Shown here one piece after another: positions 28,976 to 35,367 of a stretch of 64,000 bases of DNA; within the stretch, counting starts at the first letter, position 1; the number at the start of each line of letters is the position of its first letter. Origin of the DNA: Escherichia phage PP01. Below the pieces are notes generated by a model. That model did not search any database, had not been told where the DNA came from, and saw only the letters and a list, made by a program, of their open reading frames with translations. The stretch lies in sequence record NC_054930.1, one strand, 5' to 3'. A program made the position numbers and the translations under genes.

Positions 28976-32116
<3,141 letters not shown>

Positions 32117-32144: not shown

Positions 32145-34124
32145 ATGACTTTATTATCTCCGGGCATTGAGCTCAAAGAAACTACGGTTCAAAGCACCGT
32201 GGTTAATAACTCTACTGGTACAGCAGCTTTGGCCGGTAAATTCCAGTGGGGTCCTGCTTTTCAGATTAAACAGGTTACAAACGAAGTAGATTTAGTTAAT
32301 ACTTTTGGTCAACCAACCGCTGAAACTGCTGACTATTTTATGTCTGCGATGAATTTCTTACAGTACGGAAATGACTTACGAGTAGTTCGTGCTGTTGATA
32401 GAGATACCGCTAAAAACTCATCTCCGATTGCTGGTAATATTGAATACACAATTTCTACCCCAGGTAGTAACTACGCGGTTGGAGATAAAATCACGGTCAA
32501 ATATGTTTCAGATGATATTGAAACTGAAGGTAAAATTACTGAAGTAGACGCAGATGGAAAAATTAAGAAAATTAATATTCCTACTGCAAAAATTATCGCT
32601 AAAGCGAAAGAAGTAGGTGAATATCCAACACTAGGTTCTAACTGGACTGCGGAAATTTCTTCATCTTCCTCTGGTTTAGCTGCAGTAATAACTCTTGGAA
32701 AAATTATTACTGATTCTGGTATTTTATTAGCTGAAATTGAAAATGCTGAAGCTGCTATGACAGCGGTTGACTTTCAAGCAAATCTCGAAAAATACGGAAT
32801 TCCAGGAGTAGTAGCTCTTTATCCAGGCGAATTAGGCGATAAAATTGAAATTGAAATCGTATCTAAAGCTGACTATGCAAAAGGAGCTTCTGCATTACTC
32901 CCAATTTATCCAGGTGGTGGTACTCGTGCATCTACTGCCAAAGCAGTGTTTGGATATGGACCACAAACTGATTCACAGTATGCTATTATAGTTCGTCGTA
33001 ATGATGCTATTGTTCAAAGCGTTGTTCTTTCAACTAAGCGCGGTGAAAAAGATATTTACGATAGTAACATCTATATCGATGACTTTTTCGCAAAAGGCGG
33101 CTCAGAATATATTTTTGCAACTGCACAAAACTGGCCAGAAGGCTTCTCTGGAATTTTAACTCTGTCTGGTGGATTATCATCAAATGCTGAAGTAACAGCA
33201 GGAGATTTGATGGAAGCTTGGGACTTCTTTGCTGACCGTGAATCTGTTGACGTTCAGCTGTTTATTGCGGGTTCTTGTGCCGGTGAATCTTTAGAAACAG
33301 CATCTACTGTTCAAAAACACGTCGTTTCAATTGGGGATGCTCGCCAAGATTGCTTAGTATTGTGCTCTCCTCCGCGTGAAACTGTAGTTGGAATTCCTGT
33401 AACTCGTGCTGTTGATAACTTAGTCAATTGGAGAACTGCAGCAGGTTCATACACTGATAATAACTTTAATATCAGTTCAACCTACGCAGCAATTGATGGT
33501 AACTACAAGTATCAGTATGACAAATATAATGATGTGAATCGTTGGGTTCCATTAGCAGCTGATATTGCTGGTTTATGTGCAAGAACTGATAACGTTTCTC
33601 AGACTTGGATGTCACCAGCTGGTTATAATCGTGGCCAAATTTTGAACGTTATTAAACTGGCTATTGAAACTCGCCAGGCTCAGCGCGACCGTTTATACCA
33701 AGAAGCTATCAACCCAGTAACTGGTACAGGTGGTGATGGTTACGTATTGTATGGTGATAAAACAGCTACTTCTGTTCCTTCTCCATTTGATCGTATTAAC
33801 GTTCGTCGTCTGTTTAATATGTTGAAAACGAACATCGGACGTAGTTCAAAATATCGTTTGTTCGAATTAAACAACGCGTTTACTCGTTCATCATTCCGCA
33901 CAGAAACTGCCCAGTACTTACAGGGAATTAAAGCTCTCGGTGGAATTTATGAATATCGTGTAGTTTGCGATACAACAAATAACACTCCGTCAGTAATTGA
34001 TAGAAATGAGTTTGTTGCAACATTCTACATCCAACCGGCTCGTAGTATAAATTATATCCAACTTAATTTCGTCGCAACTGCTACTGGTGCAGATTTTGAT
34101 GAGTTAACTGGTCTTGCAGGTTAA
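32145..34124 (+). CDS. 18: gp18 contractile tail sheath protein
   Basis: 659 aa as in T4. Confidence 0.96.
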   Translation: MTLLSPGIELKETTVQSTVVNNSTGTAALAGKFQWGPAFQIKQVTNEVDLVNTFGQPTAETADYFMSAMNFLQYGNDLRVVRAVDRDTAKNSSPIAGNIEYTISTPGSNYAVGDKITVKYVSDDIETEGKITEVDADGKIKKINIPTAKIIAKAKEVGEYPTLGSNWTAEISSSSSGLAAVITLGKIITDSGILLAEIENAEAAMTAVDFQANLEKYGIPGVVALYPGELGDKIEIEIVSKADYAKGASALLPIYPGGGTRASTAKAVFGYGPQTDSQYAIIVRRNDAIVQSVVLSTKRGEKDIYDSNIYIDDFFAKGGSEYIFATAQNWPEGFSGILTLSGGLSSNAEVTAGDLMEAWDFFADRESVDVQLFIAGSCAGESLETASTVQKHVVSIGDARQDCLVLCSPPRETVVGIPVTRAVDNLVNWRTAAGSYTDNNFNISSTYAAIDGNYKYQYDKYNDVNRWVPLAADIAGLCARTDNVSQTWMSPAGYNRGQILNVIKLAIETRQAQRDRLYQEAINPVTGTGGDGYVLYGDKTATSVPSPFDRINVRRLFNMLKTNIGRSSKYRLFELNNAFTRSSFRTETAQYLQGIKALGGIYEYRVVCDTTNNTPSVIDRNEFVATFYIQPARSINYIQLNFVATATGADFDELTGLAG

Positions 34125-34130
34125 TTGATA

Positions 34131-34146
34131 AGGGGCTTCGGCCCCT
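34131..34146 (+). other. GC stem-loop with UUCG loop (aggggcTTCGgcccct) after gene 18
   Basis: Perfect 6-bp stem, UUCG tetraloop; marks the upstream edge of the HNH insertion. Confidence 0.4.
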
Positions 34147-34162
34147 ATTCTCGAGGAATCAA

Positions 34163-34768
34163 GTGATTATTTCTAAGTTTGTTACAATAAAACCAAGAAA
34201 TCATTCAAAAATGTGGTCGACAATTCTGGGATATAAAGTATCATATCATGATACAGTATCTGTTCCAATAGAATTAATGCCAAAGAATAGTAATAAAATA
34301 GTTGACGCTAAATGTGATTTGTGTGGTATTAAATTTAGTAGAAGCATTCAGCTTTTAAATAGAACACCAACGCATGCATGTAGAAAATGTAGCATTAAAC
34401 AAGTTGCTATTAAAAATTCGGAAGTTCAATCTGGAATAAGTAGACCATGGCAAAGAGGTGATAAACATCCTCGATGGACTGGTAAAAGAAAAGAGTTTGC
34501 ATTATATGCTAGTAGAGTTCATTCTATAACTAAGTCAGCTAAAATAAGAAAAATCTGGTCAAAATGGCCAAATGCTGATAAAATAGGAGTGTGTGGCGTA
34601 GAAGGTGCTTACCAACTCGATCATAAAGTATCTATCAAATATGGATTTGATAATTTAATTCCGCCGGAAATTATAGCAAGCGTAAAAAATTTAGAAATAA
34701 TCACTTGGGAATCTAACCGAGAAAAATCAAAAAGAAATAGCGTAGATCTTTGGGATTTACTAGAATGA
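34163..34768 (+). CDS. Freestanding HNH homing endonuclease
   Basis: 201 aa; GTG start with SD GAGGA 5 nt upstream; Cys-pairs (CDLCG, CRKC) and C-terminal HNH-type motif YQLDHKVSIKYGFDN...NLEIITWESNREKS; T4 has no gene between 18 and 19. Confidence 0.7.
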   Translation: MIISKFVTIKPRNHSKMWSTILGYKVSYHDTVSVPIELMPKNSNKIVDAKCDLCGIKFSRSIQLLNRTPTHACRKCSIKQVAIKNSEVQSGISRPWQRGDKHPRWTGKRKEFALYASRVHSITKSAKIRKIWSKWPNADKIGVCGVEGAYQLDHKVSIKYGFDNLIPPEIIASVKNLEIITWESNREKSKRNSVDLWDLLE

Positions 34769-34775
34769 TTCTAAA

Positions 34776-34802
34776 GGCCTGTTTCGGCAGGCCATATAAA
34801 TA
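34776..34802 (+). promoter_or_regulatory. Hairpin plus late promoter TATAAATA (first of two upstream of gene 19)
   Basis: ggcctgtttcggcaggcc hairpin followed at once by TATAAATA (34795-34802). Confidence 0.5.
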
Positions 34803-34834
34803 CACTATATCCTTAATTCTTTAATTCTATATGC

Positions 34835-34861
34835 CCTAGGTTAAACATAGGGATATAAATA
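34835..34861 (+). promoter_or_regulatory. Hairpin plus late promoter TATAAATA (second, proximal to gene 19)
   Basis: ccctaggttaaacataggg stem-loop followed by TATAAATA (34854-34861), 15 nt before the gene 19 ATG. Confidence 0.55.
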
Positions 34862-34875
34862 CTACAGAGGCTAAT

Positions 34876-35367
34876 ATGTTTGTAGATGATGTAACACGAG
34901 CGTTTGAATCTGGTGATTTTGCTCGACCTAACTTATTCCAAGTAGAAATTTCTTATCTTGGACAAAATTTTACGTTTCAATGTAAAGCCACTGCTTTACC
35001 AGCTGGTATTGTAGAAAAAATTCCAGTTGGATTTATGAACCGTAAAATTAACGTAGCAGGCGATCGTACATTCGATGACTGGACTGTTACAGTAATGAAC
35101 GATGAAGCTCATGATGCTCGCCAGAAGTTCGTTGATTGGCAAAGCATTGCTGCGGGGCAAGGAAACGAAATTACTGGTGGAAAACCTGCAGAGTATAAAA
35201 AGAGCGCTATCGTTCGTCAATATGCTCGTGACGCTAAAACAGTAACAAAAGAAATTGAAATTAAAGGTCTGTGGCCTACTAACGTGGGTGAACTTCAATT
35301 AGATTGGGATTCAAACAACGAAATCCAAACATTTGAAGTAACTCTTGCTCTCGATTATTGGGAATAA
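34876..35367 (+). CDS. 19: gp19 tail tube protein
   Basis: 163 aa as in T4. Confidence 0.95.
   Translation: MFVDDVTRAFESGDFARPNLFQVEISYLGQNFTFQCKATALPAGIVEKIPVGFMNRKINVAGDRTFDDWTVTVMNDEAHDARQKFVDWQSIAAGQGNEITGGKPAEYKKSAIVRQYARDAKTVTKEIEIKGLWPTNVGELQLDWDSNNEIQTFEVTLALDYWE

Follow-up and report, generated by a model that had tools for sequence, protein, structure and literature searches.

The freestanding HNH homing endonucleases of the Mob class of phage T4 (MobA-E; class reviewed in PMC2988022, MobE characterised in PMC2790892) are encoded by small cassettes that have no promoter and sit between conserved T-even genes; their distribution is patchy, and where a phage lacks the cassette they are thought to nick or cut the gene next to the site, so that flanking markers are carried over as well. 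Here we describe a locus of like arrangement and like patchiness in Escherichia phage PP01 (NC_054930.1), of which one strand of a 64,000-nt stretch was analysed (the window, to which all coordinates refer). Its subject is a 201-codon open reading frame (ORF), ORF201, lodged between the tail sheath gene 18 and the tail tube gene 19. On balance, we favour the view that ORF201 is an uncharacterised freestanding, site-specific, HNH-like homing-type endonuclease gene under an unusual long-range translational lock, and that it is one of a large family, itself uncharacterised, in which the proteins of ~200 aa hold the sheath/tube slot across T4-like phages.

Domain order sets ORF201 apart from the Mob class, whose members by definition have an HNH_3 domain at the N-terminus and a zinc finger at the C-terminus (PMC10448857): in ORF201 the order is the opposite, the Cys pairs (residues 51-76) preceding the catalytic motif (153-185), and there is no HNH_3 match. 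Also among the closest systems are the I-HmuI-type 'HNN' HNH nicking endonucleases and the minimal HNH nickases (Gme HNH, 4h9d; GVE2 HNH, 5h0o). F-CphI/DHHRN of the T4-like cyanophage S-PM2 is another freestanding homing endonuclease gene (HEG) whose C-terminal His-Me-finger domain, like the one proposed here, is missed by standard HNH profiles (PMC6083498); DHHRN, however, requires DHDH flanked by CX2-4C and CX2C and has no central Asn (PMC6083498), whereas ORF201 has L-D-H-K-V, an invariant central N176 and no Cys pairs in its catalytic domain (near-invariant C144 only). At the level of expression, the closest parallels are hairpins that sequester the ribosome-binding site (RBS) of I-TevI, I-TevII, I-TevIII, segB and Aeh1 mobE (PMC2988022); there, as with the helix predicted for ORF201, RNA structure covers the translation start of a nuclease that may be toxic and whose message is part of abundant polycistronic transcripts.

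The cassette and its surroundings comprise the following features:

32145..34124, + strand: gene 18, tail sheath, left flank of the insert; 659-aa ORF with tail-sheath annotation in matching records.
34125..34768, + strand: optional cassette (hairpin, Shine-Dalgarno (SD) sequence and ORF), from alignment with T6, Sf22, T4T and T2 and junctions from 18 loci.
34131..34146, + strand: UUCG-tetraloop hairpin AGGGGC-UUCG-GCCCCU, fold -13 kcal/mol, part of the cassette.
34163..34768, + strand: ORF201, 201 codons, GTG start; predicted N-terminal beta/Zn-finger domain and C-terminal HNH-like nuclease domain.
34769..34875, + strand: native 18-19 intergenic region including the gene 19 SD, outside the insert and identical in T4T and T2.
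34876..35367, + strand: gene 19, tail tube, right flank; ORF with annotation in matching records.

An earlier note on this DNA had described a 201-aa GTG-start ORF with an SD between genes 18 and 19, a UUCG hairpin upstream of it, and no gene at this place in T4. All of this is borne out: the SD is GAGGA at 34153-34157, the GTG lies at 34163 and is backed by an N-terminus (M/V-I-I-S-K) common to the whole family, the hairpin folds as listed, and T4T and T2 annotate nothing between the two genes. When the 18-19 region is aligned with ORF-less relatives, as the note had proposed, the 644-nt insert takes the place of 9 nt of filler, TACGGTGCA, found unchanged at each of the nine empty sites examined (junction extraction, 18 loci). 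Megablast places the region in Tequatrovirus, with at most 98.9% identity to sequenced coliphages and 98.0% to T6.

The Tequatrovirus site is occupied in 107 records and empty in 382 (the latter being records that match a synthetic empty-site query), an occupancy of ~22%; the cassette is present in T6, where ORF201 corresponds to ORF160, and absent from T4 and T2, and T4 has no ORF201 homologue at E<1e-3. Missing from ~78% of Tequatroviruses, T4 and T2 included, the gene is therefore dispensable. Homologues occupy the same sheath/tube slot in Karamvirus, Jiaodavirus, Dhakavirus, Gaprivervirus and Gelderlandvirus and, further afield, in Citrobacter, Erwinia, Acinetobacter, Aeromonas and Shewanella phages and in eight metagenomic contigs, and in Sinorhizobium phage phiM12 a homologue comes after the sheath gene. 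By the earlier note's own criterion, an orthologous gene at this position in relatives would weaken the mobile-insertion reading; T4 and T2 have none, but distant relatives do, and their same-slot homologues argue for a long-standing, site-specific resident of the T4 superfamily and no recent one-off invasion. An exhaustive profile search recovered 6345 cluster representatives at E<=1e-3, of which 1628 also passed E<=1e-10; in some longer family members, helix-turn-helix (HTH) or DUF7487 modules replace the N-terminal domain and are fused to the C-terminal one. Scans of the IMG/VR and JGI metagenomes found few close relatives.

Two alleles share the Tequatrovirus site. The T6 type, to which the PP01 window belongs, accounts for 68 records at >=95% protein identity, and the Sf22/RB3 type is ~50% identical to it overall, with 34% identity between T6-type and Sf22-type proteins over residues 1-130 and 89% over residues 131-201. 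The N-terminal domain of the T6 type is closest to that of Karamvirus KMB17 (55%), and that of the Sf22 type to those of Jiaodavirus Merci (62%) and Shewanella phage Thanatos-2 (58%), the flanking genes being ~97% identical between the two allele types. Therefore, cassettes for the putative recognition domain have been exchanged across genera at one site. Gaprivervirus adds empty sites, the VR26 allele (33% identical to ORF201) and the VR7/RZ 'gp19.1' allele (59%). Presence and absence at one precise site, as expected of a homing gene, is hence seen in both Tequatrovirus and Gaprivervirus, and lateral transfer, incongruent with the flanking genes, is evident in the allele mosaicism and in the Gaprivervirus alleles.

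The sequence beside the insert carries a further signal:

34035..34080, + strand: silent-site hypervariable block at the gene 18 3' end, 45-90 nt ahead of the stop codon, with a haplotype that follows the ORF allele.

Here the nucleotide diversity (pi) of gene 18 peaks at 0.193 against a mean of 0.039 (18 loci), a 5-fold excess made up almost entirely of synonymous changes, with allele-specific haplotypes. We regard the block as a candidate co-conversion tract or recognition region. Its 15-mer AATTTCGTCGCAACT (34065-34079) is found in 9/9 occupied and 0/10 empty loci examined, T2 and RB14 departing from it at the last base only. At that base, 34079 (-46 from the gene 18 stop), T2 and RB14 have G (ACG) and all nine occupied genomes have T (ACT), making it a candidate sensitivity/resistance position for the putative endonuclease. 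The exact T6-type flank haplotype occurs in none of the 382 empty records, the nearest being RB14 with 3 mismatches, and no single flank polymorphism divides all occupied from all empty genomes. A comparable pattern is seen in Gaprivervirus, where occupied VR26 and empty VR25/L019 differ by 0-3 mismatches per 60 nt across the last 700 nt of gene 18, except for 15 and 9 mismatches in its final two 60-nt bins, and by 11 in the first 60 nt of gene 19. VR25 and L019, both empty, differ from each other by 1, 8 and 1 in the same three bins, so the VR26 excess is clear in the first and third and absent at -60 to -1. Allele-linked divergence within ~50-120 nt of the insert in two genera, with near-matches in T2 and RB14 that have no ORF, forms an indirect signature of co-conversion; it is the trace expected of co-conversion from divergent donors and does not prove that an endonuclease initiated it. 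The gp18 C-terminus (FYIKPARSINYI.LNFVATATGADFDEL) is conserved across genera, and the DNA encoding it is therefore a plausible long-lived target.

These observations bear on two other accounts of the locus. If ORF201 were an ancestral T4-superfamily gene passed on by vertical descent and deleted many times, its patchiness would reflect loss; the deeply conserved position would fit, as would the ORF identity that in several genera drops roughly in step with gp18/gp19 divergence. We nonetheless find this account improbable, given N-terminal alleles that are each nearer another genus in nearly identical flanks, three states within Gaprivervirus, one filler and one junction in all empties examined, and the localisation of the ORF-linked flank haplotypes. 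The main rival holds that the gene encodes a domesticated, beneficial nuclease that is kept in the sheath/tube slot because it serves the phage, for instance by putting nicks into the DNA of competitors or of the host or by helping in late DNA processing, and that spreads by ordinary recombination only. The same slot is filled in >=10 divergent phage groups, all copies examined are intact (9/9 in Tequatrovirus), expression control appears elaborate and conserved, the closest solved folds are terminase-associated HNH nickases, and HNH genes beside packaging genes can be functional partners (PMC10448857). Absence from most Tequatroviruses, T4 and T2 among them, alleles that are mosaic across genera, and divergence that spikes tightly around the insert are harder to accommodate. 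T4-type terminases, moreover, carry their own nuclease, and we consider a beneficial resident an unlikely explanation on the whole. The homing-type endonuclease gene that we favour is in better keeping with the optional insert, the mosaic alleles and the flank divergence. Of the earlier note's proposal of a homing-gene invasion, the optional insert at a fixed intergenic site is upheld, and the mosaic alleles and localised flank divergence indicate lateral replacement.

Whether the protein looks like a nuclease can be judged from its C-terminal half:

34619..34717, + strand: predicted catalytic-core codons, with D153-H154 at 34619-34624, N176 at 34688-34690 and N185 at 34715-34717.

The Cys pairs and the C-terminal HNH-type motif that had been picked out earlier are indeed present, as the nearly invariant C51/C54 and C73/C76 and as YQLDH...N...NLEIITWESNR. 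Residues invariant in 35 full-length homologues include Y150, Q151, D153, H154, N176, L177, W182, N185, R186 and K188, and in a more diverse C-terminal alignment (A5) D153, H154, N176 and N185 are the sole invariant columns, so the catalytic His and Asn hold up on alignment. The family hence shows the ordered Asp-His, central Asn and final His/Asn of the HNH motif as defined in PMC6083498, ORF201 having Asn in place of the last His. In the structure model (predicted local distance difference test, pLDDT, 89), strands 150-154 and 177-181 and helix 182-190 make up a beta-beta-alpha core, and BFVD structural neighbours include proteins named HNH or homing endonuclease; a Foldseek search of the model against the PDB returned no significant match. 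The modelled fold is suggestive of likeness to HNH enzymes.

Profile searches contribute little. No curated HNH profile recognised ORF201 in the HNH profile search that the earlier note had called for: Pfam gave only sub-threshold treble-clef zinc-finger matches and no HNH family, NCBIfam gave no match, and 1 of 35 family members matched HNH_4 (E 0.078). The best PHROG is 5104, 'unknown function' (E 6e-83). Sequence searches of the PDB, with the single sequence and with profiles, returned zinc fingers or leucine-rich-repeat (LRR) artefacts only, the LRR matches of the C-terminal profile being spurious and arising through an 'NLxxL..N' pattern. A literature search found no paper describing the gene; Petrov et al. 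2010 counted one 'other HNH' in T6, unnamed. From the residue pattern we conclude that the C-terminal domain is a putative divergent His-Me-finger nuclease domain of the 'HNN' variant; most likely, the N-terminal beta/zinc-finger module recognises DNA and the C-terminal module cuts or nicks it. It is very improbable that the protein is instead a small zinc-finger nucleic-acid-binding regulator of late gene expression: its sole profile matches are weak treble-clef or zinc-ribbon domains, as such a regulator would have, but the invariant residues are those of the C-terminal D-H...N...N and not cysteines alone, and the structural neighbours are nucleases.

Beyond anything in the earlier note, the cassette contains a long-range RNA helix over its start site, which is a new finding:

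34148..34185, + strand: 5' helix arm, comprising UUCUCG, part of the SD, CAA, GTG and codons 2-8.
34682..34723, + strand: 3' helix arm, comprising codons V174-W182 (NLEIITW) and CGAGAA (R186-E187).

A repeat search returned a 26-nt inverted repeat (I1) with 92% complementarity, one arm of which (34160-34185) covers CAA, the GTG start and codons 2-8, and the other (34682-34707) codons V174-W182, which encode the NLEIITW strand of the predicted catalytic core. Folding of the full mRNA places the helix in both the minimum free energy (MFE) and the centroid structure (z-score -4.3) and lengthens it outward, pairing part of the SD and UUCUCG (34148-34153) with CGAGAA (34718-34723), for 26-35 bp in total between arms about 496-520 nt (~0.5 kb) apart. 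Within the translation initiation region (TIR), 18 of 20 nt are paired with partners >300 nt off, and P(unpaired) is 0.15. The duplex formed by the ORF201 TIR has an energy of -31.6 kcal/mol, against -18.1 +/- 2.5 for 50 other ORFs of the window (minimum -23.1).

The pairing recurs among homologues. In 12/12 of those compared, no other part of the ORF pairs with the TIR as well as the true 3' segment does, and the native duplex outscores >=99.5% of synonymous recodings. Across 39 homologue DNAs the duplex energies are bimodal, with 14, all of them GTG-start, at -22 to -38 kcal/mol. With extra DNA from exact-protein look-ups and phage records, compensatory changes could be followed in the covariation test: ATT/GAA becomes ATC/GAG in Merci, L131, Ursula, STP4-a and Thanatos-2; CAAGTG/CACTTG becomes CATGTG/CACATG in homologue L128, where a base outside the coding sequence is paired with a Thr third position; and TCT becomes GAT (S4D) together with GAA to TCT (E178S) in L211. 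On the named structure 73.9% of cells pair, as opposed to <=46% with the partner slid, the covariation score lies above 500/500 shuffles, and RNAalifold independently gives the same 16 pairs. G.U pairs are frequent, which indicates the sense-strand RNA. A sister subclade with ATG starts (L209, L212, L213) does not have the register of the GTG clade. In this class II, SD, spacer and ATG (TTTCAGGAACAATATGATTAT) pair with the DNHI(V/T)PE codons at -34 to -35 kcal/mol, with P(unpaired) of 0.01-0.02 and a compensatory change of its own, GGAACAAT/ATTGTTCC to GGAGTAAT/ATTACTCC, that entails a Val-to-Thr change.

Compared with the RBS-sequestering hairpins of the T4 family, the predicted ORF201 helix likewise places a stable structure over SD and start. 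Those cases, however, are local hairpins formed with upstream sequence and relieved by a late promoter inside the structure (PMC2988022), whereas no local upstream hairpin with an internal late promoter is found here and the partner lies downstream in the ORF. Since that partner is inside the gene's own catalytic-motif codons, it is present in every full-length transcript. Long-distance occlusion of a start site is familiar from the RNA phage MS2, in its maturation gene and in the coat-replicase 'Min Jou' interaction. By analogy, a start paired with a distant segment could be used only on nascent chains or when a ribosome opens the partner, although MS2 has another type of genome and other genes, and the likeness would be one of mechanism only. 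Initiation on nascent RNA or during melting of the 3' arm is our preferred reading of the helix.

We put at about even chances the proposal that this constitutes a new self-limiting switch, in which a selfish nuclease gene has its start base-paired, across ~0.5 kb, with its own catalytic-motif codons. As the start region pairs with catalytic codons, RNA pairing would then constrain the protein at both ends of the gene: the conserved MIISK N-terminus, the GTG start and the covariation of S4D with E178S may be such constrained features, and the same architecture would have arisen in two registers in sister subclades. A rather doubtful possibility, which is compatible with the homing reading, is that the 26-35 bp duplex is an RNase III-type processing site that excises the nuclease ORF from late polycistronic RNA. 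Such processing would destroy the ORF mRNA; of the remaining RNAs, that of gene 18 would end at the UUCG hairpin and that of gene 19 would keep its native leader. In keeping with it, the helix is long, has few imperfections and encloses nearly all of the ORF, stabilising hairpins flank both sides, and T4 transcripts that contain a HEG are known to be processed by RNase E in the cases of segG and segB (PMC2988022). The helix nevertheless tolerates G.U wobbles and internal mismatches, and the class II helix, which lies over SD and ATG only and reaches deeper into the ORF, suits start-site occlusion better.

Downstream of ORF201, two further structures precede gene 19:

34776-34793 and 34795-34802, + strand: UUCG hairpin, then late promoter TATAAATA.
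~34833-34852 and 34854-34861, + strand: second, weaker hairpin, then late promoter TATAAATA.

Both successive stem-loop and TATAAATA units had been reported correctly, but the idea that the insertion had made or brought in a duplicated promoter unit is contradicted by ORF-less genomes. From TTCTAAAGGCC (34769) to the gene 19 ATG, the window, T4T and T2 are the same over all 107 nt (34769-34875), with both hairpins and both TATAAATA boxes, and the stretch shows three singleton differences only across 18 Tequatrovirus loci. Furthermore, ORF-less phage Lutter has two promoters annotated in its gene 19 leader. All that the two units have in common is the 10-mer ATATAAATAC, for which reason they are not sequence duplicates of each other; duplication was thus rejected by both the alignment and the repeat search. 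Taken together, the identity in ORF-less phages, the Lutter promoters and the scant likeness of the units identify both as the native gene 19 leader. The paired units are T4's own leader and no insertion scar, which corrects a tempting misreading.

The window contains 23 copies of TATAAATA (10 +/- 3.4 expected), with none between 32117 and 34794, and hence no internal or own late promoter for the cassette. A 7/8 match to the late-promoter box, TATAAATT, lies inside the gene 18 3' end at 34046-34053. It could drive transcription of the cassette, but is present in ORF-linked haplotypes and in some empty genomes alike (T4 has CATTAACT instead) and is not kept as TATAAAT in other genera, so that this is a possibility only. 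Scanning for sigma-70 promoters and intrinsic terminators gave no usable information (6 found, 5.1 expected; no terminator met the T-run rule), and Rfam over 33900-35000 gave no family and one sub-threshold snoRNA match. The upstream hairpin at 34131-34146 is annotated as a terminator in the G2133 record, and in other genera a hairpin is likewise present where this cassette has its own; it is likely a 3'-end stabiliser or a weak terminator for gene 18 transcripts.

In the scheme that we favour, in which cleavage, homing, the target site and a regulatory effect of the helix are what we infer, the enzyme would damage ORF-less genomes in mixed infection at or near the gene 18/gene 19 junction. 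The candidate targets are two, the empty junction GGTTAA-TACGGTGCA-TTCTAAAGG and the conserved final ~100 nt of gene 18. Repair from an ORF-bearing genome would then bring in the cassette and, with it, ~50-120 nt of gene 18 from the flank. Without a promoter of its own, the cassette would be transcribed by read-through of gene 18 late transcripts past the UUCG hairpin. The ~0.5-kb helix would then throttle translation by pairing the catalytic-motif codons with the SD flank, the GTG and codons up to the eighth; with its start site so buried, the gene could be translated only from nascent RNA or during unwinding of the 3' arm by a ribosome, and limited initiation would hold the nuclease dose low.

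Several points weigh against this scheme. Cleavage and homing are putative for every family member, and no mention of the gene was found in the literature. A slot conserved across subfamilies and uniformly intact copies suit a useful resident gene equally well. T2 and RB14 are empty, yet their flanks are within 2-3 nt of ORF-linked haplotypes, no 'immune' polymorphism that is fully diagnostic was found, and the flank analysis draws on 18 + 3 genomes that are not independent. As for the helix, synonymous recodings still average -14 to -21 kcal/mol, such that conserved peptides explain part of its conservation.

Annotation of the gene is uneven. Its public labels range over hypothetical protein, gp19.1, gp67, holin, putative head morphogenesis protein, type II restriction endonuclease, homing endonuclease and HNH endonuclease, and in Aplg8 and RB6 it is unannotated. 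The BFVD entry M1HDJ8 (Salmonella phage S16) is a 106-aa protein that matches the C-terminal half of ORF201 at 59% identity, with a target-based TM-score of 0.89, and may be a truncated or decaying copy in Gelderlandvirus S16, whose relative STP4-a has the full-length gene.

Neighbouring genes in the window, and observations made at related loci, complete the picture:

30281-32113: gene 17.
From 35439: gene 20.

In other genera, the slot between genes 19 and 20 (tube/portal) holds an optional ORF of ~193-206 aa (L005 3746-4327 in KMB17, L009 3769-4350 in Bp7, L043 1345-1965). The ORFs of KMB17 and Bp7 were considered as paralogues of ORF201 and rejected: they are unrelated and show a weak SegE/GIY-YIG hint only, the Bp7 copy despite its annotation as HNH endonuclease. 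It looks as if nuclease cassettes have landed repeatedly at the conserved junctions of late genes. Just past the 19/20 cassette of Bp7, the portal gene is annotated as adjacent gp20' and gp20 (L009 4408-4731 and 4737 onward), which may be a split gene or a sequencing frameshift beside a putative endonuclease gene. In Shewanella phage Thanatos-2 (L042 1-2980) the large terminase is called as two ORFs, the first of which matches a Tn7 TnsA-like endonuclease N-terminal domain besides Terminase_6N; this suggests another nuclease insertion or fusion in a packaging gene. Finally, in uncultured large-phage contigs, an extra block of small ORFs lies 3' of a gene for a DUF7487 and HNH-like protein, P0046 (L038 5868-6405 as against L039/L040 5869-7023), and as the contigs are otherwise identical, it is a local presence/absence polymorphism beside a family member.

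For the T4-like phages, the locus brings into view a large nuclease-like family, thousands of clusters strong, to which annotation pipelines give the labels 'hypothetical', 'gp19.1', 'holin' or 'head morphogenesis'. Because its ~200-aa members keep to one slot, they offer a natural system for the persistence of homing-type genes and for swaps of recognition modules, and T6 against T4 or T2 is a classic marker-exclusion set-up for which candidate target sequences are now named. If the proposed switch is true, each mRNA would be translatable only while nascent or already under translation, and a built-in dose limiter would move with the mobile cassette into any new genome. Such a lock, if confirmed, would be a new mode of phage endonuclease regulation, in which RNA structure shapes amino-acid choice at a catalytic motif.

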